Origin: Elusimicrobiota bacterium | GTDB taxonomy: Bacteria > Elusimicrobiota > Elusimicrobia > UBA1565 > UBA9628 | Length of the DNA: 64,000 nucleotides | Direction of reading: 5' to 3' | NCBI GenBank assembly: GCA_003151975.1 | Contig: PLZD01000067.1 | Location: 1,143-65,142, forward strand | Shown: piece after piece, positions 23,812 through 41,471 of the stretch | Numbering within the stretch: the first letter of the stretch is position 1 | How the letters are laid out: each line of letters opens with the position of its first letter | Program-made: the position numbers and the translations under genes | Notes under the pieces: model-generated | What the model saw: only the letters and a program-made list of their open reading frames with translations | Databases searched by the model: none | What the model was told of the DNA's origin: nothing

Positions 23812-23812
23812 A

Positions 23813-26719: not shown

Positions 26720-27813
26720 TCCCAATGAAAAGAATCGCTTGTCTGCTCGTCTTGCTGGGCGCGGTCGGACCACTGCGCGCCGAAGAGCCGAAGAAGGCCT
26801 TTATTTTCGTGGTTTCCGCGGGCGCCGGATCGCAGATTTTTCCGCCGAGCGAACTGGAACGCCGGCGTGACGCGGAAAAGAATTACTACGAGGCGCAAGG
26901 CTACAAGGTCGAGGTCGCGCCCGCCACGCAGGACGCTGTGTTCGACGCGATCGCCTCCGGTGCTTCCGCGATTTCGTATCTCGGCCCCGCGGCAGAAGGC
27001 GCCCTCGAGCCGACGTTGTTGGGCCTCAACGCCCGCGTTTGGAAGGGTGCGGCCGCAGTTTATTATTCGATGAAGCACGCCGACGTGCCTAAGAACCTCG
27101 GCCTGCAAGTCCTGCGTAATTTCTCGTGTCGCAGTCTCTGGGACAACAACCTCGCGGAGCTTTTCGTGCGGCCCGGCGGCCATTACTTCGGGGCCAAGAG
27201 CGACCTCGCCCACGATCCTTCCTACGAGAAGCTGGCGGGTGTCGTCGAAGGCTGCACGCAAGGCGGCGACTGCCGCTGCGCGACCGTGGGTCTATACTCG
27301 GCCGGCGATCTCAGGGATTACGAACTGCCTCGCCGCAAAGCGGAAACCGCGGCCGTTGCTTCCGCGGCGCCGTCTGTCCCCGTGATGCCGGCCGCGCTCG
27401 CGCCCGCAGCACTGCCGGCGGTGGCAGTACCGCAGGCGGCGGTGCCGCAGGCGGCGGTGCCGCAGGCGGCATCGCCGGCGCTGCCGCCGGGCCCGCTGTC
27501 GGGGACTTGGTACATTTCGCCCACCGGCACCATCGTGATCGACCAGCGCGGCGAGCAGGTCAGCTGGGTGCTGACGGTTCCCGACCGCAGCGTGCGCCAC
27601 GAGGGCCACGGCACTTTTTCCAACTCGATGCTCAACGGCGCCTTTGAGGACGCCGAGGACCCCACCGGCCTGCGCGCCGGCGAGTTCAAGGGTTTCCAGC
27701 TGACCTCCGAGGGCAAGCTTTGCGGCCAGGTGCGCTGGTGGAACAAGATTGATGCGGCGCGCGGCTCAGGGATGGGTTTCGACTGTTACTCGCGGCAGCC
27801 GCTTAAGAAGTAA
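26716..27813 (+). CDS. secreted hypothetical protein, two domains joined by an A/P-rich repeat linker
   Basis: 365 aa with a GTG start in a GTGA overlap with ridA (alternative ATG at 26725, MKRIACLLVLLGAVGPLRAEE, which is a signal peptide). The C-terminal domain is Cys-containing. No family was recognised. Confidence 0.65.
   Translation: MIPMKRIACLLVLLGAVGPLRAEEPKKAFIFVVSAGAGSQIFPPSELERRRDAEKNYYEAQGYKVEVAPATQDAVFDAIASGASAISYLGPAAEGALEPTLLGLNARVWKGAAAVYYSMKHADVPKNLGLQVLRNFSCRSLWDNNLAELFVRPGGHYFGAKSDLAHDPSYEKLAGVVEGCTQGGDCRCATVGLYSAGDLRDYELPRRKAETAAVASAAPSVPVMPAALAPAALPAVAVPQAAVPQAAVPQAASPALPPGPLSGTWYISPTGTIVIDQRGEQVSWVLTVPDRSVRHEGHGTFSNSMLNGAFEDAEDPTGLRAGEFKGFQLTSEGKLCGQVRWWNKIDAARGSGMGFDCYSRQPLKK
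27424..27480 (+). repeat. 15-nt tandem repeat, about 3.5 copies (encodes AVPQA units)
   Basis: The units gcagtaccgcaggcg gcggtgccgcaggcg gcggtgccgcaggcg gcatcgccggcg were read directly from the sequence. Confidence 0.85.
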
Positions 27814-28852
27814 GCTCGGGGAGTTCGAAAAAGAAGGCTGTTCCTTTTCCCGTCGTAAATCCTATGCGCCCGCCGTGTCGCTCGACGATGGCCTTCGAAA
27901 TCGCCAAGCCCAGGCCGGAGCCGCCCTTCTTGTGGCCTTCGGCCTGCGCGAACCGTCCGAAAATCTTATCGCGAAAGGTCTCCGGTATGCCGGGACCGTC
28001 GTCGCGGATGCTCACGCGAAGTGACGCGGCGTCGCGCTCGATGCTCGCGCGTACCACGCCGCCCTCGGGTGAGAACTTGACGGCATTCGAGAGCAGATTG
28101 GTCAACACCTGGCGCAGGCGGTCGGGGTCGCCCATGACCTTGGCGCCGGGAAGTCCGGCCCTCATTTCGAGGGTGACGCCGGTCTTGGCGCCCAGCCCGC
28201 GCGCCGATTCGAGAATGGACTCCGTCAACGCCGAGAGCTCGAGCGGCTCGAGCTTGAGCGGCGCGGCCCCCGAGGTCAGCTTTTCGATGCTGAGATAATC
28301 GTTTATGAGATCCAGCATGAACTGGCTGTTGCGCATGGCCATGCCCAGCATCTTCTCCGCCGTGTCGGGGTGGCGGCGGGCCAGCTCAAGCGAGCCGATG
28401 ATCGCGGTCAGCGGCGAGCGGAGCTCGTGGGTGGCGAGTGCTATGAGCTCGTCCTTCATGGCCTCGACCTTGCGCCGCTCGGTCACGTCGCGGAAGACCG
28501 CGCGTACGTACTCGGCTTTGCCCGCGTCGTCGAAGCGGTAGTTGATGAAGCCCTCGACCTGGAACTCTGTCCCATTCTTGGAAACGAAGATGCGCTGAAT
28601 CTCGCGCAAGGTCTCTCCCGCGGCCAGCTTCGCCTCGTTTTCCGCGACCAGCACCCGCTGGTCGGGGTGCAGGACGTCGTGGGCGTTCATGCTGTTGATC
28701 TCGTCCTGTGAGTAGCCCAGCTTCTCGCGCCAGGCGCGGTTGACGTAAAGGATGCGGCCCCCGGGCGTGGCGAGGATGACGAGGTCGTCGATGTTCTCGA
28801 GCAAGTCCTCGAGGCGCTGGGTCTCCGCGGCGGGAAGTTGGGCGAGCGTCAT
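27803..28852 (-). CDS. cytoplasmic PAS-domain sensor histidine kinase
   Basis: 349 aa with no TM. It has a PAS region (ILATPGGRILYVNRAWREKLGYSQDEI), an H-box (ATHELRSPLTAIIGSLELA), an N-box (LTNLLSNAVKFSP) and G-boxes (DDGPGIP, GGSGLGLAI). Confidence 0.92.
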   Translation of the reverse strand: MTLAQLPAAETQRLEDLLENIDDLVILATPGGRILYVNRAWREKLGYSQDEINSMNAHDVLHPDQRVLVAENEAKLAAGETLREIQRIFVSKNGTEFQVEGFINYRFDDAGKAEYVRAVFRDVTERRKVEAMKDELIALATHELRSPLTAIIGSLELARRHPDTAEKMLGMAMRNSQFMLDLINDYLSIEKLTSGAAPLKLEPLELSALTESILESARGLGAKTGVTLEMRAGLPGAKVMGDPDRLRQVLTNLLSNAVKFSPEGGVVRASIERDAASLRVSIRDDGPGIPETFRDKIFGRFAQAEGHKKGGSGLGLAISKAIVERHGGRIGFTTGKGTAFFFELPELTS

Positions 28853-29008: not shown

Positions 29009-32000
29009 TTGCAGTGCAATAATGGGTCTATGTTGCGGCGCTTCATTGCTACCGTTGTCTGCGCGGCCCTTATCGTGGCCTGCCCCGGCATCGAGTCATA
29101 CCACGCGATAGCCGGCGAGCTCGGCGAGATCAATGTTGGCGCGCGGCGCGCGCCCGCCCTTCCCGCTCTGCCGACCGCGATCCTGCCCGGCATCGCCAAC
29201 ATCACCCAGCTCTCGCAGACGCCGGGAAATCTAGCCACGGTCACCGAGGTCGCAACAGTTCATTCCGCGATCGCGACGCCTGGCGCGGCCGCTGCAAACA
29301 CTTCTTCGATCTCGAACGCCTCGGCGGTTGCTCAGCCTGAGACGGCGGAGGTTGAAAATGCGGGAAAACTGATCACACCGGAGGTCTTGGCGGGACTCAA
29401 CGCCACGACTAAGGGCGTCTCGGAAGCCGTCGAGGCCCTCGCCAAGCCCGATCTGAGCGCCGAGGGCGCGCACGCCGTCGGCGTCCGCCTCGAAGGCGCG
29501 GTTTCGCCTGCGGTCTCCGCCGAAGAGATTTCTCCCGCGGCCTCGGGCTTCTCAAATTTCTCGGGTAATGTTCATGCCAAGCAGAAGCGCGGCCTCGTCC
29601 AGTCCGTCGGCTTCTTTGCGAAAGCCAAGGGCTTCGTCCGCACAATTTCGGTCGCCGCGGTTCTGACGATCGCAACACTCGGCGGCCCCGTGCTGGCCCA
29701 GACCGTTCCGCAGGGCCCGGCGCCGGCCGGCCAGCAGCAGCAGGTTCCAGCTCCCGCCCAGCCCGGCGCGCCCGTGCTCGGCGCGCCTCAAGACACGGTC
29801 CAGGCCGAGGAGCCCGCGCCCAAGCAAATCGGACCCATCTCGGCGACCATCGCGATCCAAGGCCAGAACATGACGGTCGGCGATCGCTTCCACATCGCGC
29901 TCACGCTGACCAACAGCTCGGATAAGCCGGTCACGATCGCCAATCTGCGGAACTCGCTCAACGACGCCCTGCCCACGGACGTCGAGCTGCAGATGAACTC
30001 AGGGTCGGACGCCGTCACGCTAAAGCCCGGCGAGACGCAGACGGTCGTCTTCGAGACCATCGCGTTTGCCTCGGGCGACATCGCGATGGGCGGCCCGCTG
30101 ATTTTCAACGCGCAGCTCAATGGCCAGGCCGCCGAGATGCAGGCCATACTCGCCGACGGCGCGATCACGGTCAAGTCGGTCCTCACGCCCGATTGGAAGA
30201 AGATCGGCTTCAAGGATATCTACAGCGTCCTGCGCCAGGACGTGCCGCTCTGGGCGTGGCTGGCGGCGATCCCGCTGCTGCTGTCGCTGCTCGTCGCCGG
30301 CGAGCGCGTGCTCGCGGCCCAGCGCCGCGGCGCCAAGGTCCTCTCGGTGGGCCAGCCGCTGCTGGTCTCGACGCGCGCGCGCATGAAAGCGCTCGAAGGC
30401 GCCTTGGAGCAAAACGACGCGGCGTTCTACGCCGAGTACTACTCCATACTCTCGACTTTCCTGATCGACTCGCACGGCTTGTCCGTCAAGGAGCGCGACG
30501 CCAAGACCTTGATCTCGGACCTCAAGAAGGCTAAGAAGCTTTCCTCGGGCCAGCTTAAGGTCGCCTCAGATTTAGCGTTCTCAGCGGAAGCCGCGCGGTT
30601 CGGCGGCCGCGCTACGACGGCCGAGCAGCGCTCCGCCGACCTCGCGGCTCTGTCGTCTCTCGTGGACAACATCGCGGGTGCTTCGAAGACGCAGAAAACC
30701 GAAGGCCTACACAGCCTCGGCGGGCCGATGACGGGCCTGCAGTTCGGCAACCCCTACGCGCTGCTGCTCTTTTTGCCGCTGGCTGGGTATCTGGCTTGGA
30801 AGTTCATAGGCCGCAAGCAGGCCAGCGCCCAAGCCGCTTACCCGCTCTCGACGCTTTCCTCGGTCTCGCCGCGCAAGAGTTTCCGCCAGCGCTTCGGTTG
30901 GCTGACGAAGGGCCTTCGCGCCGCCGCCGTTTCCTTAATTCTGCTCGGCATCGCCGATCCCCAACTCGGCGTGCGCCGCCAGGAGACCATCACGCCGTCG
31001 ACCGACACTGAGCTCATCATCGACGTGTCGGGTTCGATGGACGAAGCCTTCAACGGTTCCGGCAGCCCCAGCAAGCTGGTGGCCGCCGAGGAGGCGATGA
31101 AGGCCTACATCAACGAGCAGCGGCGCGGCACGCAGAACCGCGTGGGCTTGGTCACTTTCTCGGACGAGTCTTACGTCGACATCCACCTCACTCAGGACTA
31201 CGACGCGCTGATCGCGCACTTGAAGGAGCTGCATACGATTTCTTCGACGGCGATCGGCAAGGGCATACTGACCGCGACGGGCCAGTTCCTCGAGGCCAAC
31301 GCCTACGAGCTGACCTCGCAGGACGACCCGCGCATCATCGAGGTTCAGCGCCTCATCCGCACCGAAGGCCTCGGCGCCGCTCTCGAGTATGCCAAGCCCT
31401 ACCCGGACCTCATGGACAAGATCGTCCGGCCCGACCGCAAGAAGGTCATCGTCCTTTTCACGGACGGCGAGTCCAACACTGGCCTTGAGCCCATCCCGGC
31501 CTCCGAGATCGCGGCGAAACTTGGCGTGCGCATCTACACGGTCGGCATCGCTCCCAAGGGCGGCACGGGCGTGGGCTACGATGAGAACACGCTGGTCACG
31601 GTGGCCAAGAACACCGGCGCGCAGTTCTTCCGGGCCGATGACGCCGACCGCATGCGCGAGATCCTGCTCGAAATCAATCGCCTCGAGAAGAGCCCGACCA
31701 AGATCGTGTCGGCCGTATCGGTCCAGAGCTACCAGCAATGGTTCATCATGCTGGCGCTGCTGGCGCTGGGCTTGGAGCTTGGCCTGGCCAACACGAGATT
31801 GCGCGTGCTGTCGGGCTTCTTGATGTTCACTTTGCCGTTCGGCAGCGTCGTCAATTTCAACCCGGCGCAGCAGCCTGCCGCGATCGTGCAGACCGTCGAC
31901 GCCCAGGCCCCGGCCGCGGAATCCGCTTTGCCGACCACCGGCGTGCCCGCCGAGGTCGCCGCGGCCAATCTGCTCTTCAACTCGGGCCGGTATGACGAAG

Positions 32001-35000
32001 CGCTCAAGGCCTACGCCAAGGCGCTCGAGAAGTATCCCGACATGGCCGAGCTCTACTACAACATGGGCAACGCCTACTTGAAGCTGGGCGACGTCGACCG
32101 CGCCAAGATCAGCTACGGCAAGTTTTTGAGCCTCAAACCCGACGCGAAGCTGGCTTCGAAGGCGATCTACAACATGGGCAACGCCGCGCTTTCCGCCAAG
32201 GACGTCGAAGGCGCTGTCGACAATTATAAGGAAGCCCTGCGCCGCGATCCGAACAACGACCGCGCCAAGTGGAACCTTGAGGTCATTAAGGCGCTCCAGA
32301 AAGAGCAGCAGCAGCAGCAATCCCAGCAGCAGCAGAAACAGCAGCAGAAGGAAGGCAAGCAGAAGCAGAACGGCAAGCAAAAGCAGAAAGGCGACCAGAA
32401 GGGCGATCAAAAGGGCGACCAGAAGGGCGATCAGAAAGGCGACCAGAAGGGAGACCAAAAGGGCGATCAGCAGGGCAAGCCCGGCGACCAGAAAGGCGAC
32501 GCCCAAGCCAAGCCCGGCGACAAAGAGAAGAGCGGCGCCGACCAGTTGACCGACAAACTCGGCGACCAGGAAAAGAAGGAAGGCGAGGCCGCGCGCAAGG
32601 CCATCCCGCGTAAGGGCGACAAGGTTTGGGGCCTCCTCGGACTGCCGCTGGCGGCCGGCGGCTCAACCGCCTTGGCTTTCGGCTCAGCCTGGATGCTCTG
32701 GGCGCTGGCTTTCGGCCTGCCCGTCGTCGCCGGCCTCATCGCCTACGGCATCCACAAGAAGATTCAAGCCGCCAAGCAGCTGACTCCGGGCACGGCGCCC
32801 GCGGGTTTTGCTTCCTGGTGGGGACGCAACGCTTTCCTGCGCAAGTCGGCGCTGATGATCACGGCGGCAGCCCTCCTTGGCCTGTCAGCGGCCAACCCGA
32901 AGAGCGGCTACAAGGACGAGCGCCTCAACTTCGGCGGCAAGGACATCGAGGTGGTGCTCGATAACTCGCTCTCCATGCTCTACGCCGAGGACGGCCGCGC
33001 CGACCGCACCCGCAAGGAGCTCACCGATTTCATCACGCACATGCAGGGCACCGACCGCATCGGCCTGGTGGTCTTCGCGGGCTCAGCAAGGACCGCGGCG
33101 CCCATCTCAATGGACTACGGCAATTTCGAGTACAAGCTGCAGAGGTTGGAAGTCGAGTCGCGCGGACTTAAATCCGGCTCGGACCTAGCCGCGGCGGTGC
33201 AGTTTGCCGCCAAGTCCTTCGAGGACGTCAAGCAGCTCGAGGGCCGCCAAAGGATCGTCATCATCATCTCCGACGGCGACATTTTCAACGAGGAACTCGA
33301 GGGCGCCGTAAAATCAGCGCAAGAGCACCACATCACGGTCTACACGATCGGCGTGGGCACGCCGGCCGGCTCCAAGATCAAGGTCCCGACCGAGGACGGC
33401 AAGGGCACCGAGTACGTCATCGACGAGAAGACCGGCCAGCCGGCCGTCACGACACTCGTCGAGGAGCCCCTGCGCCAGATCGCCTCGCGCACCGGCGGCG
33501 CCTACTTCCGCGCAGGCTCAGATTCCTCGATGAACCGCATTCTCGAGCAGATTTCGACGCTGCAGAAAGGCGAGAAGGGCGACACGATCAAGTCCCCGCG
33601 CGGCGTGGCGTCATGGTTCTTGTGGCCGACCATGCTCTTGCTGCTGCTCGAGATGCTGCTGCCGAGCAAGTCGGTGCTCAAGGACGACCGCAAAGAGAAA
33701 GCGCGCGGCGTAGCGGTTCTCGGCTTGGCCTCCTTGCCTTTGTCGGGTTATGCTCTGATGCTGCCTTTCGCCGTGCTCACGACCGTCGCCGTGGGCTTGC
33801 TTGCCGCCGACTATTGGAGCGGCGGAGCGATCCGGCGCAAGATCGCCTGGGAGCTCGAGCGCCGCCGCAAGCTCGTGGAAAACGGCGTCTTGACCGACGC
33901 CGCGGGCTTGTTCGATCTGCGCGAGACCGACGCCCCGAAGCTGTCGGCCTTCCTCAAGTCTTGGAGCGAGGCCGATGAGGCTGGAAAGAAAATCTTGTCC
34001 AACGAGGCGGTCTTAGACGAACAGCTGTGGCGCCAGAAGCTCGCCGCGGCCTTCGTCTACGGCAGCGCGCCGGAGACGCAGGAAGCGCTGCTCACGATGA
34101 TGGCGCGCACCGCGCAGAAGCGCCTCGAGCCGATGGCTCCGGTCGCCGAGCAGTTGCTCGCGCGGCGCGGCCGCCTGCCCTGGCTCGACCATGTCGACGC
34201 GGCGCGGCGCCTCGCGCGCCTCGCGCAGGCCTTCCTCGATAATTCGAAGCCTGAGAATCACGCCGCTTTGGTTTCGCTGCTCTCTCACCCCGACGCCGAG
34301 GTCCAGCAGGCCGCGCGCCAGGCGTTAGGCAGCGAAGTCCCGGCGCCGGCCCTCAAACGCGGGTTTTTCTTCAACTGGCGCAAATGGCTCTCGGTCGCCC
34401 TCTCGACTCTGATGCTCGCGTCCTCCATGACTTGGGCGGGCTTCTCCGGCTACAAGACGACGCAATTCTTCGAGGAGTCGGCCAAGGCGCGGGACTTCTC
34501 GATGCGGACCTTCTACCGCGAGGACATGTTCGTCTTCTCGGACCACTACGCCGACGACCGCATCACGACCGACGTCCTGCCGGCTCTCAAGGCGTGGCAA
34601 GAGAACCCGCAGTCCGCGGGCGCGGGCCTCGAGCGCGCACTGACGGTTCTCTCGCAGTCCCCCGATCCCAAGGCCGACAACGTGCTCGAAGTTATCCTTA
34701 AGCACGGCGACATCCTGCCGCTCACGCCGAAGGCGGAGTATATGCTGCTCCACACCCTCGTCATCCGCGACAACGACGACGTCTGGCGCTTCATGGAGGA
34801 CCACCTCCAGAAGAGCGCGCGCAACCCGCGCGCCGTCATCCTGATGGAGAAGATGATCGCCATAGGTGCTGCCGAGGGCAACGAGAAGGTTTTCCAGAAC
34901 ATCTTCCATTTCCTGAAGAGCCCCAGCGAGCAGATTCAGCAGGTGGCCACGGCCGCGATCGCGGCGTCGCTGTCGGCGCCCGACAAGGTGGCCAAGATCT

Positions 35001-38000
35001 TCGACCGCCTGACCGACGTGCAGTCGCGCTACGCTCAGGACCCCGAAATGAATTTGTGGGTGGAAAACTTCGTGCTCCAGCGTCTGGCGACGGCCGAGGC
35101 CAAGGACATCGACTCGGCCAAGGCGCGGGGCCTCATCGACAAGATTTTGGACGCGGGGTCGCCGTGGGCGGCGATGCGCGCTCAGGCGCTGGCCGCCCAA
35201 GCCGCGCAGCAAGCCCAGCAGCAGCCTCAAGCCGGCGCCGCCCCGGGCGCCGCTCCCCAGGCCCAGCAGCAAGCTCAGATTCCGCCGCCTTTCATCTTGA
35301 TCGTGTTCGGCCAGATGAACGACGCCGAGCAAGCTTTCGTTTCGAACGGCCAGGCCGTCCCCGGGCCGCTGGCCGACATGGTCAAGTACGCGGTCAACCG
35401 CACGATGACGCAGCTCATTAAGGAGGGCGAGGCGAAGTTCGGCGATTTGCACAAGCGTCTCATCGAAGCCGGCGTCGTCCTGCCCGATACTGAGAACTCC
35501 TACGGCGGCGGCTACGACGACGACTACGAGGGGCGCGGTTGGGGCGGCTACCGCGGCGGTCGCGGCGGCAGTTATTCCAGCACGTCGCAGAACTACCGCG
35601 AGCTCTACAAGCTCCAGCACATCCGCGATTTCGCCAAGCAGCTTTCCGAGGCCGCCCAGACGAGCGCCGCGGCCGACAGCGCATCGGTGAAGCCCGAGAC
35701 CCTCGAGTATCTCGACCGCGCCGCCCAGGCTTTGAAAATCATGGAGCCTCTGGGGCAAGCGTCGGGCATGCTCGATGGCGGCAGCGTGGGGGAGAAAGCG
35801 GCCGACGAGGTCAACAAAGTCCTCGACGCCACGGCCTCCAAGCTCACCGGCAGCGGTTTCCTCAACGCCCTGCGCGCCAAAAACGTCGCGCCCAGCAACG
35901 GGGTGGATTCCGGAGCCGCGCGCTTCCTCGAGACCTACACTTTCGAGAACATCGAGGCGATCAAGGCCGTGATCCGGGAGATCGCGGCATCCGGCAAGGG
36001 CTGGGACTACCAGGGCAACCAGCGGACTTTGCTGCTCAGCGAGAAGCAGGCGCTGGCCGCGGCCCTCGACGAGCTCACCGCCGCCGAAGCCAAGGTCTAT
36101 CCGGACAAGGCTAAGCCCGCGGCAGCGAGCGATTTCTGGAAGACGCTGGAGACGCCCGGCGAAGAGAGCCTGGCGTTGGCGCGCTTGAGCGTGGGCGCCG
36201 CCGCGCACGCGGCCGATGCCGAGTTCCAGCTGCGCGCGCTCAACTACCTGACGGCGCACGCCGACAAGAATTCCAATCCCGACGAGCTTTCCGAGATCAT
36301 CGCCCAACTGGCCAAGGCCGTCGAGAAAACCGACAAGGCCCCCGAGGTCCTCTCGATTCTCGCGCGCGTCGTCGACGGCAGGGCAGATAGCGATCCGCTG
36401 ACCGCCGCCATCCGAAAAGAGTATCAGCGCCAGGCGTCCGTCACGATCGCGGACGCGGTCTCAGGCTTCGGAAACCTGAGCCAGAAGCTGATCGATCTCA
36501 AGGTCCGGCCTTCCTCTTATTCCGATAAGCCGTACAAACTGATCGATCTCAAGGTTTTCCTTAAGGCGGTCGAGGACGAGGCGGCCGCCGTGGCCGGGCC
36601 GAATATGAGCGAGGACGCAAAGAAAGCGGCCGCTCGGGCACGGCTGATGGTGCCCAAGATCATCGAGCTGGGGACCAAGGTCGGCATCACGCCGGGAGAC
36701 TCCCCGGCCGATCTCGTCGCCGGTCCGGTCAACGATATCCTGCACCAGGGCTGGCAGCTCTTCGACGGCTCGACCTTCCTCGAGGCCATGCGCCGGCAGG
36801 GACTCGAGCCCGCGGGCAGCTCGACCGACATCTACACGGGCTACTACCAGGCTTACTCCAAGGACAGCCTCGAGAAGATCCTGAAATGGCTCAAGAACGT
36901 GAAGGCTTTGGGCGACGGCTGGAAATCGCAAGACATGTCCACCAAGCCCCTGAGCGACAAGGAGAAGGAATACCTCGACAAGGCCATCAAGGGCATCCAG
37001 GACCAGATCGACAACTATCCGAAAGCCGGGCCCGCCGCGACCGAAAAGAAAGTGTTCCACGGCATGGCGCTCGTCGGCTTGGGAACGCTCGGCACGGCGA
37101 TTTCCTGGATCGGAACCGGCCTGCTGATCGCGGCCGCGGCGGTGGTGATCTACTACGTGGTCCGCGCGGCGCTTAAGAAGACGAAGGCCGCGAGTCTGAC
37201 CCCCGTTTTCAACGCGGCGGCCGAAAGAACCGCGCCGGGACTCGACGGCAGATTTAAGAAAATCGAGATCACGGCCAAGCGCGTGGCCAACTCGGTGGCC
37301 GGCGGCAACTTTCGATCCGTTTTCATCGGCGCGGGCGGCACGGATTTCGCGGAAAGCAAGCCCTACGCCGGCGAGGACCTGCGCGACGTCGACTGGAAGA
37401 CCACCGCGCGCCAGGGCGAGCTCTACGCCAAGAAGTACGAGCTCGAAAAAGACATGCCGCTCATGCTGCTCATCGATCTCTCGCGCTCGGCCCAGTTCGG
37501 CACGCGCGGCGAATCCAAACGTGGCGTTATTGAAGACGCTTCCTCGGTTCTCGCGCTGGCGGCCGCCAACACCAACCTGCGCGTCGGCGCCATCATCTTC
37601 TCCGACAAGGTCGAGGCCTACATCCCGCCGCAATCCGGCGTCAACCACGCCCGCGAGATCGTGCGCCGCGTGCTCGCGTTTGATCCTAAGGGCCAAGCCA
37701 CGGACCTCAAGCCTGCGCTCGGTCTAGCGCTTAAGGAACTGCGTTCCCGGTCCATGATCGCGGTCGTCTCGGATTTCATCGCTCCTGATTTCAAGAATTC
37801 GCTGATGGCGCTCTCAGCGCGCCACGACCTGCGCCTGATCCGCGTCTCCGATCCCGCCGAGACCGCGCCCCTGCCAAAGGTGGGCCTGGTGCTCGTGCGC
37901 GACGCCGAGACCGGCGAGGTGCGCTACGTCGACACTTCCGATACGCGCTTCCGCACCGAGCACGCCGCCTTGCTGGCCAAGCAGGAAGCCGCCCGCCAGG

Positions 38001-38098
38001 CCGCTTTTACCGCCGCGCGCACCGTGCCGCTCACGCTTTCGACGGAAGGGGACCCTCTCGAGGCCCTGGCCGTGTCGCTTAGCCCCAAGAAAAAATGA
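29009..38098 (+). CDS. giant (3,029 aa) multi-pass membrane protein: fused BatD/DUF4381-like + BatA-like vWA + TPR + BatB-like vWA + about 1,100-aa unknown module + DUF58-like domain
   Basis: The frame is uninterrupted for 9,090 nt. An alternative start at 29030 gives MLRRFIATVVCAALIVAC, which is signal/lipobox-like. There are three DxSxS MIDAS-type motifs: DVSGS at 31022-31036, DNSLS at 32960-32974 and DLSRS at 37475-37489. It also has a BatA-type N-terminus (FGNPYALLLFLPLAGYLAW), TPR repeats, and a DUF58 signature (YAGEDLRDVDWKTTAR). The stop overlaps the moxR start. Confidence 0.85.
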   Translation: MQCNNGSMLRRFIATVVCAALIVACPGIESYHAIAGELGEINVGARRAPALPALPTAILPGIANITQLSQTPGNLATVTEVATVHSAIATPGAAAANTSSISNASAVAQPETAEVENAGKLITPEVLAGLNATTKGVSEAVEALAKPDLSAEGAHAVGVRLEGAVSPAVSAEEISPAASGFSNFSGNVHAKQKRGLVQSVGFFAKAKGFVRTISVAAVLTIATLGGPVLAQTVPQGPAPAGQQQQVPAPAQPGAPVLGAPQDTVQAEEPAPKQIGPISATIAIQGQNMTVGDRFHIALTLTNSSDKPVTIANLRNSLNDALPTDVELQMNSGSDAVTLKPGETQTVVFETIAFASGDIAMGGPLIFNAQLNGQAAEMQAILADGAITVKSVLTPDWKKIGFKDIYSVLRQDVPLWAWLAAIPLLLSLLVAGERVLAAQRRGAKVLSVGQPLLVSTRARMKALEGALEQNDAAFYAEYYSILSTFLIDSHGLSVKERDAKTLISDLKKAKKLSSGQLKVASDLAFSAEAARFGGRATTAEQRSADLAALSSLVDNIAGASKTQKTEGLHSLGGPMTGLQFGNPYALLLFLPLAGYLAWKFIGRKQASAQAAYPLSTLSSVSPRKSFRQRFGWLTKGLRAAAVSLILLGIADPQLGVRRQETITPSTDTELIIDVSGSMDEAFNGSGSPSKLVAAEEAMKAYINEQRRGTQNRVGLVTFSDESYVDIHLTQDYDALIAHLKELHTISSTAIGKGILTATGQFLEANAYELTSQDDPRIIEVQRLIRTEGLGAALEYAKPYPDLMDKIVRPDRKKVIVLFTDGESNTGLEPIPASEIAAKLGVRIYTVGIAPKGGTGVGYDENTLVTVAKNTGAQFFRADDADRMREILLEINRLEKSPTKIVSAVSVQSYQQWFIMLALLALGLELGLANTRLRVLSGFLMFTLPFGSVVNFNPAQQPAAIVQTVDAQAPAAESALPTTGVPAEVAAANLLFNSGRYDEALKAYAKALEKYPDMAELYYNMGNAYLKLGDVDRAKISYGKFLSLKPDAKLASKAIYNMGNAALSAKDVEGAVDNYKEALRRDPNNDRAKWNLEVIKALQKEQQQQQSQQQQKQQQKEGKQKQNGKQKQKGDQKGDQKGDQKGDQKGDQKGDQKGDQQGKPGDQKGDAQAKPGDKEKSGADQLTDKLGDQEKKEGEAARKAIPRKGDKVWGLLGLPLAAGGSTALAFGSAWMLWALAFGLPVVAGLIAYGIHKKIQAAKQLTPGTAPAGFASWWGRNAFLRKSALMITAAALLGLSAANPKSGYKDERLNFGGKDIEVVLDNSLSMLYAEDGRADRTRKELTDFITHMQGTDRIGLVVFAGSARTAAPISMDYGNFEYKLQRLEVESRGLKSGSDLAAAVQFAAKSFEDVKQLEGRQRIVIIISDGDIFNEELEGAVKSAQEHHITVYTIGVGTPAGSKIKVPTEDGKGTEYVIDEKTGQPAVTTLVEEPLRQIASRTGGAYFRAGSDSSMNRILEQISTLQKGEKGDTIKSPRGVASWFLWPTMLLLLLEMLLPSKSVLKDDRKEKARGVAVLGLASLPLSGYALMLPFAVLTTVAVGLLAADYWSGGAIRRKIAWELERRRKLVENGVLTDAAGLFDLRETDAPKLSAFLKSWSEADEAGKKILSNEAVLDEQLWRQKLAAAFVYGSAPETQEALLTMMARTAQKRLEPMAPVAEQLLARRGRLPWLDHVDAARRLARLAQAFLDNSKPENHAALVSLLSHPDAEVQQAARQALGSEVPAPALKRGFFFNWRKWLSVALSTLMLASSMTWAGFSGYKTTQFFEESAKARDFSMRTFYREDMFVFSDHYADDRITTDVLPALKAWQENPQSAGAGLERALTVLSQSPDPKADNVLEVILKHGDILPLTPKAEYMLLHTLVIRDNDDVWRFMEDHLQKSARNPRAVILMEKMIAIGAAEGNEKVFQNIFHFLKSPSEQIQQVATAAIAASLSAPDKVAKIFDRLTDVQSRYAQDPEMNLWVENFVLQRLATAEAKDIDSAKARGLIDKILDAGSPWAAMRAQALAAQAAQQAQQQPQAGAAPGAAPQAQQQAQIPPPFILIVFGQMNDAEQAFVSNGQAVPGPLADMVKYAVNRTMTQLIKEGEAKFGDLHKRLIEAGVVLPDTENSYGGGYDDDYEGRGWGGYRGGRGGSYSSTSQNYRELYKLQHIRDFAKQLSEAAQTSAAADSASVKPETLEYLDRAAQALKIMEPLGQASGMLDGGSVGEKAADEVNKVLDATASKLTGSGFLNALRAKNVAPSNGVDSGAARFLETYTFENIEAIKAVIREIAASGKGWDYQGNQRTLLLSEKQALAAALDELTAAEAKVYPDKAKPAAASDFWKTLETPGEESLALARLSVGAAAHAADAEFQLRALNYLTAHADKNSNPDELSEIIAQLAKAVEKTDKAPEVLSILARVVDGRADSDPLTAAIRKEYQRQASVTIADAVSGFGNLSQKLIDLKVRPSSYSDKPYKLIDLKVFLKAVEDEAAAVAGPNMSEDAKKAAARARLMVPKIIELGTKVGITPGDSPADLVAGPVNDILHQGWQLFDGSTFLEAMRRQGLEPAGSSTDIYTGYYQAYSKDSLEKILKWLKNVKALGDGWKSQDMSTKPLSDKEKEYLDKAIKGIQDQIDNYPKAGPAATEKKVFHGMALVGLGTLGTAISWIGTGLLIAAAAVVIYYVVRAALKKTKAASLTPVFNAAAERTAPGLDGRFKKIEITAKRVANSVAGGNFRSVFIGAGGTDFAESKPYAGEDLRDVDWKTTARQGELYAKKYELEKDMPLMLLIDLSRSAQFGTRGESKRGVIEDASSVLALAAANTNLRVGAIIFSDKVEAYIPPQSGVNHAREIVRRVLAFDPKGQATDLKPALGLALKELRSRSMIAVVSDFIAPDFKNSLMALSARHDLRLIRVSDPAETAPLPKVGLVLVRDAETGEVRYVDTSDTRFRTEHAALLAKQEAARQAAFTAARTVPLTLSTEGDPLEALAVSLSPKKK
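29790..30700 (+). other. BatD/DUF4381-like module of the giant ORF
   Basis: A beta-rich segment (ISATIAIQGQNMTVGDRFHIALTLTNSSDKPVTI...) is followed by a TM (VPLWAWLAAIPLLLSLLVAG, 30241-30300). A helical segment with FYAEYYSILSTFLIDSHGLSVKERDAKTL...AARFGG comes after it. The assignment relies on my memory of the family pattern and is not HMM-verified. Confidence 0.5.
30730..31815 (+). other. BatA-like vWA module (TM-TM-vWA-TM)
   Basis: The module has FGNPYALLLFLPLAGYLAWKF, then LRAAAVSLILLGIADPQLG, then the MIDAS motif DVSGSMDE, then VIVLFTDGESN, and ends in the TM QQWFIMLALLALGLELGLA. Confidence 0.8.
31955..32290 (+). other. TPR repeats (BatC-like)
   Basis: Three to four 34-residue repeats are present (AANLLFNSGRYDEALKAYAKALEKYPDMAELYYNMGNAYLKLGDVDRAKISYGKFLSLKPD...AVDNYKEALRRDPNN). 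They are followed by a Q/K-rich tail. Confidence 0.85.
32387..32470 (+). repeat. 12-nt in-frame tandem repeat x7 encoding (KGDQ)7
   Basis: The unit aaaggcgaccag and synonymous variants repeat seven times, then degenerate copies (QGKPGDQKGDAQAKPGDKEK) run to about 32530. The repeat is embedded in a Q/K-rich tract spanning 32290-32600. Confidence 0.9.
32620..33680 (+). other. BatB-like vWA module
   Basis: Two hydrophobic segments lead into ...SAANPKSGYKDERLNFGGKDIEVVLDNSLSMLYAEDGRADRTRKEL, then VIIISDGD, then a terminal TM (WFLWPTMLLLLLEMLL). Confidence 0.8.
35370..36125 (+). repeat. copy 1 of a diverged internal protein-level duplication in the giant ORF
   Basis: This copy aligns by eye with copy 2. 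The matching pairs are FGDLHKRLIEAGV / FGNLSQKLIDLKV, YKLQHIRDFAKQL / YKLIDLKVFLKAV and GSGFLNALRAKNVAPS / GSTFLEAMRRQGLEPA. Two more pairs are GKGWDYQGNQRTLLLSEKQALAAALDEL / GDGWKSQDMSTKPLSDKEKEYLDKAIKGI and YPDKAKPAA / YPKAGPAA. Confidence 0.65.
36395..37040 (+). repeat. copy 2 of the internal duplication
   Basis: See copy 1. This copy also contains a short direct repeat, KLIDLKV, twice (36484-36504 and 36538-36558). Confidence 0.65.
37250..38095 (+). other. DUF58-like (vWA-fold) C-terminal module
   Basis: The module reads FRSVFIGAGGTDFAESKPYAGEDLRDVDWKTTARQGELYAKKYELEKDMPLMLLIDLSRSAQFG...AVVSDF. It is preceded by a TM at 37056-37175. Confidence 0.8.
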
Positions 38099-39615
38099 AC
38101 CGAGGTAACGCCATGAAGACGACGCTCTCGCAAATGATGAAGACTGCGGCCTTGCTGGGCCTGTTCGCCCTGCTCTGTCCCCGCGCGGCGCACGCTGTTG
38201 ATTTCGCCGAGCGCTCCGCGGTGACGCCCGGCGTCCAGCTCAAGCTTGTGACGCTCGACCCGAAGATCGGCGCGCTCGGCAAGCCCGGCGACGGCATCAG
38301 CATCGACCCCCTCGCGGCCCAGCTTCACAATGTCCTGACCGCGGCCGGCCTCTTGACCGAGGCCCCCGGCCAGATCGCGATCCTCACGATCCCTCAGCCC
38401 TTGGCGACGATTTCCAACGGCCCTAAAGCCGCCAACGACGTCGGGACTCCGGCGGAGGCCTCGCAGGCGCGTCTTGCCGAGATCACTAAGACGGTTGTGG
38501 ATATGCCCGACATCTCGAAGGCCGAAGGCACGGATGCCTCCGGCGCTGGACGCACGCTCTCCGACGCCGTCACCGGAGAGAAGACGGTCCACGCCGGCGC
38601 CGTCGAGGCCGAGGCGACGCCGACGGCTCCCGCTAAGCCGCTCAAGCAGCAAATCACCGAGGGCAAAGCCGTCGTCGACGGCATCCGCTCCGAAGTCAGC
38701 AAGGTCATCGTCGGCCAGAATGAAATGATCAACTCGATCATCATGACGATGATCGCGCGCCAGCACGTTCTGCTCGAAGGTCTGCCCGGCGTCGGCAAAA
38801 CCGAAACCGCCAAGGCCTTCGCCGACGCGATCGACGGCTCGTTCCAGCGCGTGCAGGGCACTTCCGACAAGCTGCCCTCCGACATCCTCGGCACCGAGGT
38901 CCTTCAAGAGGACCCGGCCACCGGCAAGAAGTTCTGGGAGCTCTCTAAGGGCCCCATCTTCACGAACATCCTGCTCGCCGACGAAATCAACCGCATGCCG
39001 CCCAAGGCCCAGGCGTCCTTGCTCGAAGCCATGGCCGAAGGCCGCGTGACCATCGGCCGCCAGACGGTCGACCTGCAGCGCTTCACGGTGCTCGCCACGC
39101 AAAACCCCGTCGAGCAGGACGGCACCTACCGCCTGCCCGAGGCGCAGCTCGACCGCTTCATGTTCAAGGTGCTCGTGCCTCAGCCGAGCGCGTCGGATTT
39201 GAAGGTCATCATGGAGCGCAACCGGTCGAAGGAGAACCGCCCGAAAGCGTCCAAGGTCACGAACTTGGCGCAGTTGGACGACATCCGGCGCACCGCCGAG
39301 CAGATCCCGATGGACGCTCAGATCGAGGACTACATCATCAAGATCGTCATGGCCGCCAAGGAGCACGCCGATCTCAAGGATAGTGTGGAATACAGCGTCT
39401 ACACGCGCGCGGCGATCTTCATGGCGCAGGCCGCCCGCATCCACGCCTTGATGGAAGGGCGCGATTGGGTGAGCCCCGCGGATGTGCGCGCGGTAGCACC
39501 CCTCGTCATGCGGCACCGCATCGTGCTCAACTACCAGGCCGCCGGCACGACGTCCGACCAGGTCATCACGAAGATTCTCGACTTGGTCGCTCCGCCGAAG
39601 GTCGCGGCCAAGTAA
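38095..39615 (+). CDS. MoxR-family AAA+ ATPase with about 190-aa N-terminal extension
   Basis: 506 aa. The core starts at about 38668 with Walker A (GLPGVGKT, 38779-38802), Walker B (LLADEINR), [24 protein letters not shown], and a C-terminal lid. The N-terminus has the hydrophobic segment [21 protein letters not shown] followed by an A/P/T/E-rich stretch. It has an ATGA overlap with the giant ORF. Confidence 0.9.
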
Positions 39616-39638: not shown

Positions 39639-39666
39639 GAGGCCCCCGAAAGGGGGCCTTTGTTTT
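39639..39666 (+). terminator. Rho-independent terminator downstream of moxR
   Basis: The stem GGCCCCC (39641-39647) pairs with GGGGGCC (39652-39658) around a GAAA tetraloop, and TTTGTTTT follows. Confidence 0.85.
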
Positions 39667-39722
39667 GCCGGCAGAGTTTTCTCATATACAACAGACCGGC
39701 TTGTTCGTATGATCTGTGCTGC

Positions 39723-41471
39723 ATGCGGGTTCTTTGCTCAGGCCTTCGTTTCCTTTGCGTCGGCGTCGTTCTCGCGTCTGCGTGCGGTTCCGGCGATCAA
39801 CTGCGCGCGGCGTCGCCCGCAGCCTGCGAACAGTCGTTGATCTCGTCGTGGCAGCAGTCTCTCCCCTCGGTGGGATTTGCGAGCGCCGCGTCGGCGGCCG
39901 CGTATGACGCCGAGATCGCGGCCCTTCTTGATCGTCCCTGGATGGGGCATCCGCTGTCCACGTATCCGGGAGGACGCTGGCCCGCCGTCTCGGTGGCGGT
40001 CGTCCAGCAAGGCAGGCTCGTCTTCGCCAAGAGCTATGGCTTTGCGAATATCTCGCAGCCTCAGCTGGCCCACCCCGATGACCTCTTCCGTCTGGCAAGC
40101 GACAGCAAGCAGATCACCGGCGCCGTGATCTTGAAGCTGATCGCCGACGGTCAATCGGTCGACGGCGATCCGGCGCATCGGCTGACTCTGCAGAGCAAGG
40201 TCTTCCAGATCCTGGCCAGTCCGCCCGGTGCCCTCGCGCCGCTCGCGGGGCCCGGGACGCTTCATGCGGACCTCGACGACATCACGGTCGAGGATCTCCT
40301 GCACCACGCAGGCGGATGGAACGGCGGCGTCGGCGATCCGGTAGACTACGCCGGCAAGCCGGGGGCCGTCCTTCCGCCGACCGACAAGGATGTGGTCCGG
40401 TACATGATGAACCAGCCGGTCCAGCACAGGCCGCATGGCAGCACTTACTGCTACTCGAATTTTGGCTACAACGTGCTGGCGACTTTGGTCGAGAAGATAA
40501 CAGGCCGATCCTATGAGAGCGTCGCAAAAGACCTCGTGCTGCGGCCCTTGGGCATCACGCGCATGAAAATCGGTGATTCGCTCAAATCCGGTGCCGGCGA
40601 GGTCACGTACTACGCGGCCGAGGGCGGTGGAAACTTGAGGTCGCTGTTTCCAGAGATGACCGGGCCCACGGTCTCCGGAGAGGACGCGCCCTACGGCAGT
40701 TGGTCTCTCTACGCGGGCCGGGGCGCGGGCGGCTGGATTGGTTCTGCGATGGACATGGTGCGTTTTCAGATCGGCGTGGATGGGACGGGCCCGGTCCAGC
40801 TTTTCTCCTCGCCGCAAGCGATGGTCTCGAGCGCCAATATCTCGCCTAACGCCTGCTACCCAAATTACAATCCGGCGACGCAGTGGTACAACGCCGGCTG
40901 GATCGTCGTCAAAAACGGCGTGTGGGGACATGACGGCGGCGCCACGGGCGCGGGAAGCAACACGACGAAGCTTCCCAACGGCGACGGCTACGCGGCCGTC
41001 ATCAATATGTCCGCAGCGCCCCCGAAGGGAGAAGTCTTCGATTGGGACGGGGCTCTCTCGAGAGCTTACCATCGCACGCTCGCCAACGGCGGCTCGTTTT
41101 TAAAAACCGACCTTTTCGATCAATTTGGAGAGTGGACCGCGTGGCGCGGCAAGGCCGGCATTTCATCGAACGCCGCTCATGATCTTGGCGCCGGCTGCGC
41201 GTACAAGGGGAAAAACTATTCCGCGTGCTATCCTTCGCGAATCGAGGGACGGCAGACCCGGGCGGGGGCAAGCTACCGGGCCGAGTTCGTGCCGCTGCAT
41301 GCCGGAGGCGAGGTTAAATACTCTTTGGGAGCCGCCTGCAATGACTTCGCGGCGATGGATAAGAAATATTTGAGCGGCGGTTATCACCGAGTCAACCTTC
41401 AATGGTTCGAGGACCCGGCGGGGCGCATGCGCTTTCAAAGCGTGTGGGTCAAGGCGGCCGACCGGCGTTGA
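39723..41471 (+). CDS. beta-lactamase-fold serine hydrolase (class C/PBP4*-like) with C-terminal extra domain
   Basis: ATG 39723 gives the signal-like N-terminus MRVLCSGLRFLCVGVVLASAC. The track start at 39660 lies inside the terminator. The SxxK nucleophile motif sits in FRLASDSKQITG, and YSNFGYNVL is present. About 180 extra C-terminal aa end in GGYHRVNLQWFEDPAGRMRFQSVWVKA. Confidence 0.8.
   Translation: MRVLCSGLRFLCVGVVLASACGSGDQLRAASPAACEQSLISSWQQSLPSVGFASAASAAAYDAEIAALLDRPWMGHPLSTYPGGRWPAVSVAVVQQGRLVFAKSYGFANISQPQLAHPDDLFRLASDSKQITGAVILKLIADGQSVDGDPAHRLTLQSKVFQILASPPGALAPLAGPGTLHADLDDITVEDLLHHAGGWNGGVGDPVDYAGKPGAVLPPTDKDVVRYMMNQPVQHRPHGSTYCYSNFGYNVLATLVEKITGRSYESVAKDLVLRPLGITRMKIGDSLKSGAGEVTYYAAEGGGNLRSLFPEMTGPTVSGEDAPYGSWSLYAGRGAGGWIGSAMDMVRFQIGVDGTGPVQLFSSPQAMVSSANISPNACYPNYNPATQWYNAGWIVVKNGVWGHDGGATGAGSNTTKLPNGDGYAAVINMSAAPPKGEVFDWDGALSRAYHRTLANGGSFLKTDLFDQFGEWTAWRGKAGISSNAAHDLGAGCAYKGKNYSACYPSRIEGRQTRAGASYRAEFVPLHAGGEVKYSLGAACNDFAAMDKKYLSGGYHRVNLQWFEDPAGRMRFQSVWVKAADRR

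Follow-up and report, generated by a model that had tools for sequence, protein, structure and literature searches.

A conserved composite all-helical insert in giant Bat fusion proteins of Elusimicrobiota

What fills the 1,124 residues that separate the BatB-like VWA domain from the DUF58 domain in a giant Bat-type protein of Elusimicrobiota? The segment, module X (nt 33680-37050, aa 1558-2681), belongs to a 3,029-aa protein encoded in the 64,000-nucleotide stretch of DNA that we analyzed (the window; Table 1). The parts of this host protein run in the order signal-like and Ig-like N-terminus, BatA VWA, BatC TPR, BatB VWA, module X, and DUF58. Pfam identified two VWA domains (VWA and VWA_2), TPR, and DUF58, and NCBIfam identified BatA (3.5e-52), BatB (1.2e-23), and BatC, with its models covering these parts only. 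The BatA and BatB scores fall under the full-length cut-offs because the host parts are fusions. For the Ig-like N-terminal region, the only match was to Transglut_C, at 0.042. Direct reading of the translation gave three DxSxS motifs (DVSGS, DNSLS, and DLSRS), the first two being those of the membrane-anchored BatA/BatB-type VWA domains with MIDAS sites. Neither BatD nor BatE matched anywhere across the 3,029 residues (Pfam E <= 1; NCBIfam E <= 0.01), and none of the Bat models in Pfam or NCBIfam describes a component corresponding to aa 1558-2681. On the minus strand, two ORFs overlap the module (34325-36307 and 36461-37696); long antisense ORFs are typical at the window's 61-67% GC.

Table 1. 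Positions of the host gene, its parts, and the adjacent MoxR gene in the window.
Feature	Nucleotides	Strand	Residues	Remarks
Host gene, giant Bat ORF	29009-38098	+	3,029 aa	Single polypeptide; ORF list and translation
H9, TM helix after second VWA	33602-33664	+	1532-1552	Hydropathy 1.82; family mean 2.04
H10	33707-33817	+	1567-1603	37-aa hydrophobic stretch with central Pro; Kyte-Doolittle maximum 2.21
N-part of module X	33818-34375	+	1604-1789	All-helical 186-aa domain; AlphaFold residues 1-170 at pLDDT about 90
H11	34376-34441	+	1790-1811	Conserved TM helix running on as long stalk helix; 20-22-aa hydrophobic stretch
Stalk helix and HEAT-like alpha-solenoid core	34442-35179	+	1812-2057	~245 aa; contains SPDPKADN and FHFLKSP
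Gln/Ala/Pro-rich low-complexity linker	35180-35293	+	2058-2095	Read from sequence; gapped in two relatives
Super-repeat 1	35294-36148	+	2096-2380	Unit 1a, ~aa 2109-2241; unit 1b, aa 2242-2380; 37% identity to relatives
Gly/Tyr/Asp/Arg loop in unit 1a	35489-35593	+	2161-2195	Between GVVLPD and YRELYKLQHI
Super-repeat 2	36149-37063	+	2381-2685	~80-aa helical cap; unit 2a, aa ~2458-2560; unit 2b, aa ~2558-2672
H12	37073-37180	+	2689-2724	36-aa hydrophobic stretch joining repeats to DUF58; hydropathy 2.13
DUF58 domain	37367-37990	+	2787-2994	Pfam PF01882, E = 4.7e-58; 56% identity to relatives
MoxR AAA+ gene	38095-39615	+		Start overlaps giant-gene stop (ATGA); Pfam AAA_3, E = 1.1e-52, plus AAA_lid_2

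A sequence-only reading of this locus had described a single helical-looking, unassignable module, punctuated by three hydrophobic segments. Kyte-Doolittle analysis placed those segments where they had been seen (H10, H11, and H12), and the sequence features it had quoted were likewise found: HAALVSLLSHPD at nt 34259, FHFLKSPSEQ at nt 34904, the Q/A-rich linker at nt 35180, and SYGGGYDDD at nt 35498. The insertion between the BatB VWA and DUF58 also stands, but not the idea of one module, which resolves into five or six separate elements, apparently divided between the two sides of the membrane. Structure prediction, which that reading had proposed, gave confident AlphaFold models (pLDDT 87.5 and, for super-repeat 2, 92.5) and bore out the all-helical character. 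Searches of Pfam, NCBIfam, PDB sequences, and PDB folds, in which the N-part was not run as a separate fold query, returned no family apart from the HEAT-like stretch. Within the module Pfam gave nothing above threshold, only sub-threshold Arm/HEAT matches at aa 1753-1769 in the N-part. The profile and fold searches were equally in keeping with the reported lack of a catalytic motif, as no recognizable catalytic domain was found in the module, which also contains no Cys.

An unassignable insert of this size could in principle have come from an insertion during assembly, wrongly joined contigs, or chance read-through of non-coding DNA in a GC-rich genome, and the overlapping minus-strand ORFs would suit such an origin. 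However, giant ORFs collinear with the host gene occur on 13 independent metagenome contigs and in 29 GTDB Elusimicrobiota species genomes, with the module at 28-42% protein identity, and the confident AlphaFold models were obtained from family alignments. Together with the duplication inside the module described below, these findings led us to reject an artefact, to which we assign a negligible probability.

The giant ORFs of the relatives are 2,989-3,492 aa long. Among 1.84 billion representatives, homologues of the module formed 49 clusters, and the module was found only in giant proteins of Elusimicrobiota, in agreement with the suggestion of a lineage-specific component in a fused Bat system. 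A free-standing copy next to bat or moxR genes, the other arrangement that had been envisaged, was not found: every copy lies inside a giant protein, and one apparently split gene proved to be a frameshift. Module X is thus a conserved composite all-alpha insert that we found only in the giant Bat fusions of Elusimicrobiota. Its identity to relatives is 28-42%, versus 53-62% for the VWA, TPR, and DUF58 parts; it is under constraint, as judged from these alignments, yet evolves faster than the known domains.

Two parts of the module precede the linker. The N-part is probably cytoplasmic because it is Lys/Arg-rich on both flanks. The HAALVSLLSHPD unit that had been singled out as HEAT-like at 34261-34330 corresponds to the final helix pair of this domain (34259-34330). 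The unit is present but appears poorly conserved in relatives because the family alignment breaks there (phmmer, query positions 137-165), and the conserved HEAT-like part is instead the FHFLKSP region. That region belongs to the core (aa ~1850-2057), an alpha-solenoid of stacked antiparallel helix pairs, where conservation within the module is highest (42% identity, with invariant motifs). The window's core scored 23.2 bits with Arm (cut-off 20.6), but no single stretch passed, and 19.5 bits with HEAT_2 (cut-off 27.7); its HEAT score likewise stayed under the Pfam cut-off. HEAT_2 was detected in four of 18 family members (best E = 3.5e-9), and the core family profile matched alphaRep (E = 4e-9).

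The C-terminal half consists of two ~300-aa super-repeats, each made of a cap and two homologous ~100-aa helical units, a and b. Self-alignment of aa 2242-2375 with aa 2549-2682 gave z = 15.8, a score reached by none of 200 shuffles, and aa 2109-2157 aligned with aa 2452-2500 at z = 4.2; at the DNA level, no tandem repeat was found within the module. A unit HMM detected two to three copies of unit b per protein with a period of about 295 aa, and many relatives have three super-repeats where the window has two. Conserved positions of the unit include AG..G..P, F.G..FL..LR..GLAP, SG.GW, and RPLT..EK. Super-repeat 2 is the least conserved part of the module (28% identity to relatives); its AlphaFold model (pTM 0.87) had no significant structural neighbor in the PDB-fold search. 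In sequence-profile and structure comparisons, neither the unit nor the super-repeat significantly matched a solved fold or curated family, and no test that we ran gave the super-repeats any likeness to HEAT. PG_binding_1 was considered because of the unit motif G..FL..LR..GL.P and was rejected, since none of 41 repeat copies matched PG_binding at E <= 1. The ~100-aa helical unit is therefore a new repeat without a match among known families. The Gly/Tyr/Arg tract noticed earlier does exist, although it is a conserved loop within unit 1a and not a free linker. It is kept in 27 distinct family sequences at lengths of 14-47 aa, frequently reads YDDY.HGHG, and is composed of 25% G, 16% Y, 10% S, 10% D, and 4% H.

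We evaluated topology from hydropathy and flank charge counts. H10 probably folds into a hairpin or re-entrant segment whose ends both face the cytoplasm: the family-averaged K+R content is 4.4 per 15 aa on either side, and the 20 residues after it, summed over 22 members, hold 107 K+R vs 25 D+E. H11 is weak in the window (hydropathy 1.34), with a family mean of 1.82 and values of 1.6-2.5 in relatives. Its flanks are asymmetric, with K+R vs D+E counts of 93/12 before and 55/59 after it, and family means concur; in the AlphaFold model, H11 and the stalk form an isolated long helix (model residues 187-236) and not a packed core helix. This asymmetry would put the solenoid and the repeat array, ~870 residues out of 1,124, on the non-cytoplasmic side, alongside the VWA domains; the VWA domain of the BatA-like protein BB0173 has been shown experimentally to face the periplasm (PMC5700661). 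Contrary to what had been proposed, the bulk of the module should thus provide no platform for a cytoplasmic MoxR, and the 186-aa N-part alone could touch MoxR or DUF58. H12, which measures 32-41 aa in the family, is weakly hydrophobic in its first half and strongly so in its second. The two halves are separated by a break where most relatives have Pro and the window has Gly-Thr-Gly, and the flanks are neutral (K+R per 15 aa of 1.4 before and 0.8 after). H12 could be a single span or, with the same shape as H10, a hairpin; in the latter case, the repeats and DUF58 would share one side of the membrane.

The arrangement of DUF58 followed by an adjacent MoxR (AAA_3) gene is kept in relatives. MoxR is the next gene downstream in each of the 12 metagenome loci with enough DNA beyond the giant gene, and the GTDB loci reaching that far show the same. 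The protein has intact Walker A and B motifs and begins with a ~190-aa extension with a signal-peptide-like start; the Sec-type signature (n-region, h-region, and AXA) was seen in the window and in nine relatives. In the relatives' MoxR proteins, the signal peptide is followed by a second hydrophobic stretch, which could return the chain into the cytoplasm.

We tentatively lean toward the reading that most of the module is a periplasmic scaffold or protein-binding arm, tethered through H12 to a DUF58-MoxR motor. The scaffold or substrate-binding platform suggested earlier would thereby keep its plausibility. The N-part would remain in the cytoplasm and the solenoid and repeats (~870 aa) would project into the periplasm, where the BatA-type VWA domains face. 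The arm would be non-catalytic and would dock the fused VWA/TPR domains or a client, with the conserved acidic Gly/Tyr/Asp loop as a candidate MIDAS-site ligand. DUF58 presumably partners the MoxR AAA+ ATPase encoded downstream, and MoxR-VWA pairs are known to remodel targets (PMC9976466, PMC13036017). Since the arm is covalently joined to DUF58 via H12, ATP-driven remodeling of DUF58 could pass across the membrane to the arm. A bolder and decidedly unlikely version is a single-polypeptide, AAA+-driven trans-membrane machine, in which a periplasmic arm of an undescribed ~100-aa repeat family would be moved via one membrane segment upon DUF58 remodeling by MoxR, and the Gly/Tyr/Asp(His) loop would be a MIDAS ligand or a redox- or metal-sensitive element. 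In a more extreme form, DUF58 and the signal-peptide-bearing MoxR would themselves be exported.

The same anatomy would also suit a passive periplasmic spacer or strut that sets the distance or geometry from the inner-membrane base to the peptidoglycan or outer membrane, its length tuned by repeat number, with no specific ligand or motor coupling. The variable copy number (two vs three repeats across the family), the low identity of super-repeat 2, the low-complexity linkers, and the absence of any match to a catalytic or ligand-binding family are what such a strut would display. We nevertheless consider it unlikely, as the units hold specific conserved positions, the Gly/Tyr/Asp loop is kept family-wide, and the HEAT-like core retains its invariant motifs. 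The location of the arm can be disputed as well. If H11 were buried and H12 a re-entrant hairpin, the whole module would be cytoplasmic, an adaptor by which the Bat complex holds MoxR and DUF58 at its membrane base. AAA+ proteins require ATP, so MoxR and DUF58 are expected in the cytoplasm, where HEAT-like scaffolds are common adaptors; H12 resembles H10, whose ends share one side, and the window's own H11 is weak. Set against this are the conservation of H11 and its higher hydropathy in relatives, the strong Lys/Arg cluster on its N-side only, and its isolation as a long helix in AlphaFold, and we regard a cytoplasmic module as improbable to a similar degree.

The conserved Sec-type signal peptide on MoxR is left unexplained by the periplasmic-arm model. 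It would be accounted for if the solenoid, repeats, DUF58, and MoxR were all extracytoplasmic, with H12 a hairpin and the module part of a periplasmic AAA+ assembly, and the length, central break, and neutral flanks of H12 would fit. However, the periplasm has no known ATP source, and the intact Walker motifs imply ATP use; the second hydrophobic stretch in relatives offers a possible route back to the cytoplasm, and canonical Bat-operon MoxR and DUF58 proteins are not known to carry signal peptides. We thus see only a slim chance for such an assembly.

In comparison with known systems, the locus is closest to the Bat/MRP-type MoxR system: DUF58, a neighboring MoxR gene, and BatA-, BatC-, and BatB-like parts carrying DxSxS are common to both. 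Here, however, all but MoxR reside in one polypeptide, the ~1,100 residues from the BatB part up to DUF58 lie outside every Bat component model, BatD and BatE are without a match, and MoxR has a signal-like N-terminal extension. Partial Bat fusions such as batB-batC have already been described, and the function of Bat proteins is elusive (PMC3557215). HEAT/alphaRep (PBS-type HEAT) and ARM/TOG solenoids differ from the core, in which only two or three repeats are recognizable by sequence and which is probably extracytoplasmic and membrane-tethered, and the super-repeats are not HEAT-like. The arms of TolA and TonB offer a functional analogy only: a mostly helical or low-complexity extension, anchored in the membrane, that reaches into the periplasm and, judging from the anatomy, would be coupled to an energy source at the cytoplasmic membrane. 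Here an AAA+ ATPase, and not a proton-driven stator, would be the motor. Pfam found no TonB_C or TolA domains in the giant protein or nine neighboring ORFs and no ExbBD/TolQR-like genes were nearby, and we do not claim membership among these couplers. In the cytoplasmic remodeling pairs NorQ/NorD, RavA/ViaA, and CbbQ/CbbO, a MoxR AAA+ protein likewise reaches its dedicated target by way of a VWA-type adaptor. These pairs are soluble and their adaptors are not known to have a helical repeat array, whereas here a membrane segment connects the DUF58 adaptor, within one chain, to a large helical arm and two membrane-anchored VWA domains. What is known at this locus is therefore a Bat-type system, and what is new is the helical insert of its fused giant form, with its ~100-aa repeat.

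The insert that follows the last VWA domain and precedes DUF58 in the giant fused Bat protein is a conserved, all-alpha, non-catalytic-looking composite of several parts, and MoxR is the next gene wherever the sequence reaches. The whole insert lies inside a single open reading frame (29009-38098, +; 3,029 aa), for which nt = 29009 + 3(aa - 1) converts 33680-37050 to aa 1558-2681. Pfam and NCBIfam assign the domains on either side of the insert, and the translation shows three DxSxS motifs (DVSGS, DNSLS, DLSRS); the host belongs to the Bat/MRP-type MoxR-VWA systems. Between BatB and DUF58 these databases assigned nothing except sub-threshold Arm/HEAT matches at aa 1753-1769. Exact database look-up of the window's MoxR returned no matching record.

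Features of the giant protein and the adjoining MoxR gene. Identity is that of the window protein to seven full-length relatives; charges (K+R/D+E) are counts in the 20 residues beside a hydrophobic segment, added up across 22 family members.
Feature	Position	Strand	Basis or remark	Identity (%)	Flank before	Flank after
BatA-type N-terminal region and VWA domain (VWA1)	aa ~577-924	+	Pfam, NCBIfam	56		
BatC-type TPR	aa ~982-1138	+	Pfam, NCBIfam	53		
BatB-type VWA (VWA2)	aa ~1278-1548	+	Pfam, NCBIfam	62		
H10	aa 1567-1603	+	37-aa hydrophobic stretch, Pro in middle			107/25
N-part	aa 1604-1789	+	all-helical in AlphaFold model, pLDDT ~90	42		
H11	aa 1790-1811	+	hydrophobic segment		93/12	55/59
Helical repeat core	to aa ~2057	+	best-conserved motifs of insert	42		
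Gln/Ala/Pro-rich linker	aa 2058-2095	+				
Super-repeat SR1	aa 2096-2380	+	self-alignment, unit HMM	37		
Super-repeat SR2	aa 2381-2685	+	self-alignment, unit HMM	28		
H12	aa 2689-2724	+	DUF58 next		65/75	58/44
DUF58	aa 2787-2994	+	Pfam	56		
MoxR AAA_3 ATPase gene	38095-39615	+	start overlaps giant-gene stop codon (ATGA)			
MoxR N-terminus	38095-38700	+	Sec-type signal-like start, .../VD in window; relatives MKKVPS...PVAASA/QT			

When 1.84 billion cluster representatives were scanned exhaustively with HMMER, only 49 proteins matched the module at E <= 1e-3, 32 of them below 1e-30. Full-length matches were 2,690-3,461 aa long with the module at residues ~1550-2500, and all named members were Elusimicrobia/Elusimicrobiota MAG proteins annotated just as 'VWA domain-containing' or 'TPR repeat' proteins. 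All 13 loci from a metagenome scan had the match within a giant open frame (complete frames 2,989-3,492 aa) collinear end to end with the window protein at 35-43% identity, and MoxR was the next gene in each of the 12 with sufficient downstream DNA. Among GTDB species representatives, patterns derived from alignment A1 recovered 29 loci, of which 28 were titled Elusimicrobia/Elusimicrobiota (one being Candidatus Endomicrobium trichonymphae) and one only 'bacterium'. Where the contig permits, these carry VWA2, N-part, core, repeats and DUF58 in one frame, with MoxR next; the closest is a groundwater MAG at 70% identity. The same frame is thus collinear in metagenome and GTDB relatives, which excludes the assembly insertion that the sequence-only reading had considered. 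Patterns taken only from the window gave zero GTDB loci because of the patterns chosen, alignment A2 was too divergent for deriving patterns, and the word-indexed protein database, queried with the whole module, yielded just two incomplete Elusimicrobia proteins, whose contigs of 2-2.5 kb offered no gene context. Identity was lower in the parts of the insert than in the known domains (see table), so the insert is constrained yet faster-evolving.

No free-standing copy of the module, for which a survey of homologues had been suggested, was found among the representatives, metagenome and GTDB loci. The sole candidate, P0004 (1,524 aa, an apparent 'X-DUF58' gene on a 3.1-Mb contig), was rejected as a frameshifted giant gene because the true frame extends upstream via H9 (the TM helix after the second VWA) and H10, and the gene called upstream runs out in a wrong frame rich in Arg. 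The match to P0048, a tandem-repeat protein that contains Cys, was judged spurious. Frameshifts cause the giant gene to be called as two or more genes in L016 (GCA_965283875.1, 3.1-Mb contig, 5119-14575) and L041 (CP096137.1, 1390-8000), both from long or complete assemblies of Elusimicrobiota; in L016 the correct frame continues past the point at which the second gene is called to start. These breaks may be long-read indel errors, or they may be real pseudogenes or split genes.

Synteny near the giant gene is kept in related contigs (L003, L004, L010, L011, L013 and others), with genes for an Asp/Glu racemase and for an ATPase of the ATP-synt_ab family (70-76% identical) upstream (window 23714-26342) and, nearby (43477-46527), a 1,016-aa protein in which CAAX (Rce1-like) protease, trypsin-like protease and PDZ domains are fused. 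A divergently oriented PAS histidine kinase (27803-28852, -) and a beta-lactamase-family gene (39660-41471) had no match in syntenic relatives. Two antisense ORFs over the module (34325-36307 and 36461-37696, both -; 660 and 411 aa) are most likely by-products of high GC (61-67%), as it is the sense frame that every relative conserves. The giant gene may truly start at the ATG at 29030 instead of the TTG at 29009. Its product begins (29009-29710, aa 1-233) with a signal-like segment, MLRRFIATVVCAALIVAC, with a lipobox-like IVAC, followed by ~170 aa of Ala/Ser/Thr/Pro-rich low complexity and a second signal-like segment (KQKRG...VLA/QT) preceding an Ig-like region; this N-terminus and the MoxR N-terminal extension are alike in design. 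Past the Ig-like region, at 30239-30760 (aa 411-582), a TM helix leads into a ~140-aa helical segment and then the BatA-type double-TM region; the membrane side of this segment is at odds with simple TM parity counting, by which BatA would have to start N-out. The Gln/Lys-rich linker past the TPR (32297-32476, aa ~1097-1156) contains a DNA tandem repeat (12 nt x 7.8) giving (QKGD)n; its length likely varies between strains.

The three hydrophobic segments of the insert (by hydropathy) and the quoted motifs (in the translation) lie where the sequence-only reading had placed them; its single module between those segments is instead a series of parts, (a) to (g), from H10 to H12. The last helix pair of the N-part is HAALVSLLSHPDAEVQQAARQALG, and family alignments are interrupted at query positions 137-165, where this unit falls, so it appears to be accessory and not core. 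H11 is the beginning of a 50-residue helix in the AlphaFold model. The core carries the motifs FY..D.F.F.D.Y.D..I, SPDPKADN and FHFLKSP; its family profile matched alphaRep/HEAT-like proteins across the FHFLKSP region (E = 4e-9 to 1e-6), and HEAT_2 matched 4 of 18 family members. The core is a HEAT-like solenoid, which is a fold class and not a functional family. Of the HEAT/ARM-like examples quoted in the sequence-only reading, FHFLKSP lies in this core and HAALVSLLSHPDAEVQQAARQALG in the apparently accessory unit. The module sequence itself gave only chance matches to the PDB (serine hydroxymethyltransferase, E ~0.35).

Each super-repeat consists of a cap and two ~100-aa units (1a/1b, 2a/2b). 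Smith-Waterman alignment with shuffles paired aa 2242-2375 with aa 2549-2682 (z = 15.8; score reached in 0 of 200 shuffles) and aa 2109-2157 with aa 2452-2500 (z = 4.2); self-BLAST of the module, unlike this method and hhalign, listed no internal repeat pair. Profile-profile comparison (hhalign) found the halves of one super-repeat mutually homologous (probability 95.8%, E = 7e-9, 90 columns), so the array comprises four copies of the unit here and six in many relatives, in which overlapping BLAST HSPs revealed one super-repeat beyond the window's two. An HMM of the stronger unit found 2-3 copies per family member with a period of ~295 aa. As no DNA-level tandem repeat remains in the module, the duplication is old. 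The unit consensus reads roughly AG..G..P.E.AA..N..L..G..F.G..FL..LR..GLAP, then a loop, then Y...Y....L...R..L....SG.GW...G..RPLT..EK..L. The Gly/Tyr/Arg tract is present as described and proved to be an enlarged form of this loop in unit 1a (GVVLPD to YRELYKLQHI), with family-wide equivalents of 14-47 aa in 27 distinct sequences (G 25%, Y 16%, S 10%, D 10%, H 4%; frequently YDDY.HGHG).

An AlphaFold model of SR2, built from an alignment of 41 super-repeat copies, was confident (pLDDT 92.5, pTM 0.87) and comprises 12 helices plus a single small hairpin. The Foldseek check proposed earlier returned nothing from the PDB at E <= 1e-3, and no TM-score exceeded 0.25. No consistent match emerged when the super-repeat profile was compared with PDB sequences or when the 41 copies were scanned with Pfam, and PG_binding_1, considered for the unit motif, was rejected on the Pfam scan. 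A word-indexed search with the unit b profile (~120 aa, alignment A4) was uninformative, as known family members were also unscored. The ~100-aa unit is without known relative among solved structures and Pfam and, given its confident predicted structure, is a candidate new domain family. 'Unassignable' holds for this unit, which has no curated family or solved fold; the core falls in the HEAT-like fold class.

Membrane topology was predicted by the positive-inside rule from the flanking charges (see table), with which a family-averaged profile of 17 full-length members was concordant: both H10 flanks had 4.4 K+R per 15 aa, H11 was asymmetric and H12 was neutral on either flank. These charges suggest that the N-part is cytoplasmic, that H10 forms a hairpin or re-entrant segment, that H11 spans the membrane from inside to outside, and that the solenoid and repeats (~870 aa), together termed the arm, are extracytoplasmic; the insert would then straddle the membrane. 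We prefer an arrangement with the arm outside and DUF58 inside, and give it about an even chance of being correct. The VWA domain of the BatA-like BB0173 was located by experiment on the side predicted here for the arm (PMC5700661).

Placing everything inside would require that H11 is not a TM helix, and seems unlikely; H11 has a weak hydropathy in the window (1.34, vs 1.6-2.5 in relatives) and the asymmetric flanks noted for the family. A third arrangement, with arm, DUF58 and MoxR all outside, draws on two observations. H12 has the shape of H10 (a weak and a strong half parted by Pro or Gly) and neutral flanks, which would fit DUF58 on either side. The MoxR of the window, like those of nine relatives downstream of giant genes (L004, L006, L008-L011, L013, L014, L015), opens with a classic Sec-type signal peptide (n-region, h-region, AXA), kept even where the giant proteins share just 35-43% identity. 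A P/A/S/L-rich stretch of ~170 aa separates this start from the ATPase domain, and the L014 and L015 MoxR proteins (631 aa) have an additional 36-aa hydrophobic stretch between Arg-rich segments. A membrane-anchored or exported AAA+ ATPase would be unusual, however, and we know of no ATP supply for one in the periplasm; we therefore take the signal peptide as unexplained and not as evidence of export, and consider this arrangement improbable; the three arrangements together do not take up the whole probability.

Under the preferred arrangement, the HEAT-like solenoid and repeat array would form a protein-interaction arm in the same compartment as both MIDAS-bearing VWA domains and the TPR. Through H12 the arm would be tied to the DUF58-MoxR module and could thus receive ATP-driven remodelling from DUF58. 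The acidic Gly/Tyr/Asp loop may act as a ligand for MIDAS or as a metal/redox-sensitive element, and the putatively cytoplasmic N-part would be the sole piece placed for direct contact with DUF58 or MoxR. Alternatively, the arm may be a passive spacer that sets length, or the insert a fully cytoplasmic adaptor.

Bat/MoxR-DUF58-VWA operons are widespread in bacteria. The function of Bat proteins is still called elusive, and fusions of some Bat genes have been described (PMC3557215); our literature searches turned up no complete single-chain version that has an additional ~1,100-aa arm. Compared with canonical Bat systems, the Elusimicrobiota form has all membrane components on one chain in fixed order and adds a conserved arm, which would link the periplasmic VWA side to the DUF58/MoxR side. 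The insert is confined to one largely uncultured phylum, and we infer its function. A single chain fixes stoichiometry and neighbour relations and sets strong topology constraints, and this fixed architecture makes the long-open Bat question easier to tackle. If the arm is a coupling or client-binding element, it would show a task that canonical multi-protein Bat complexes perform by separate subunits.
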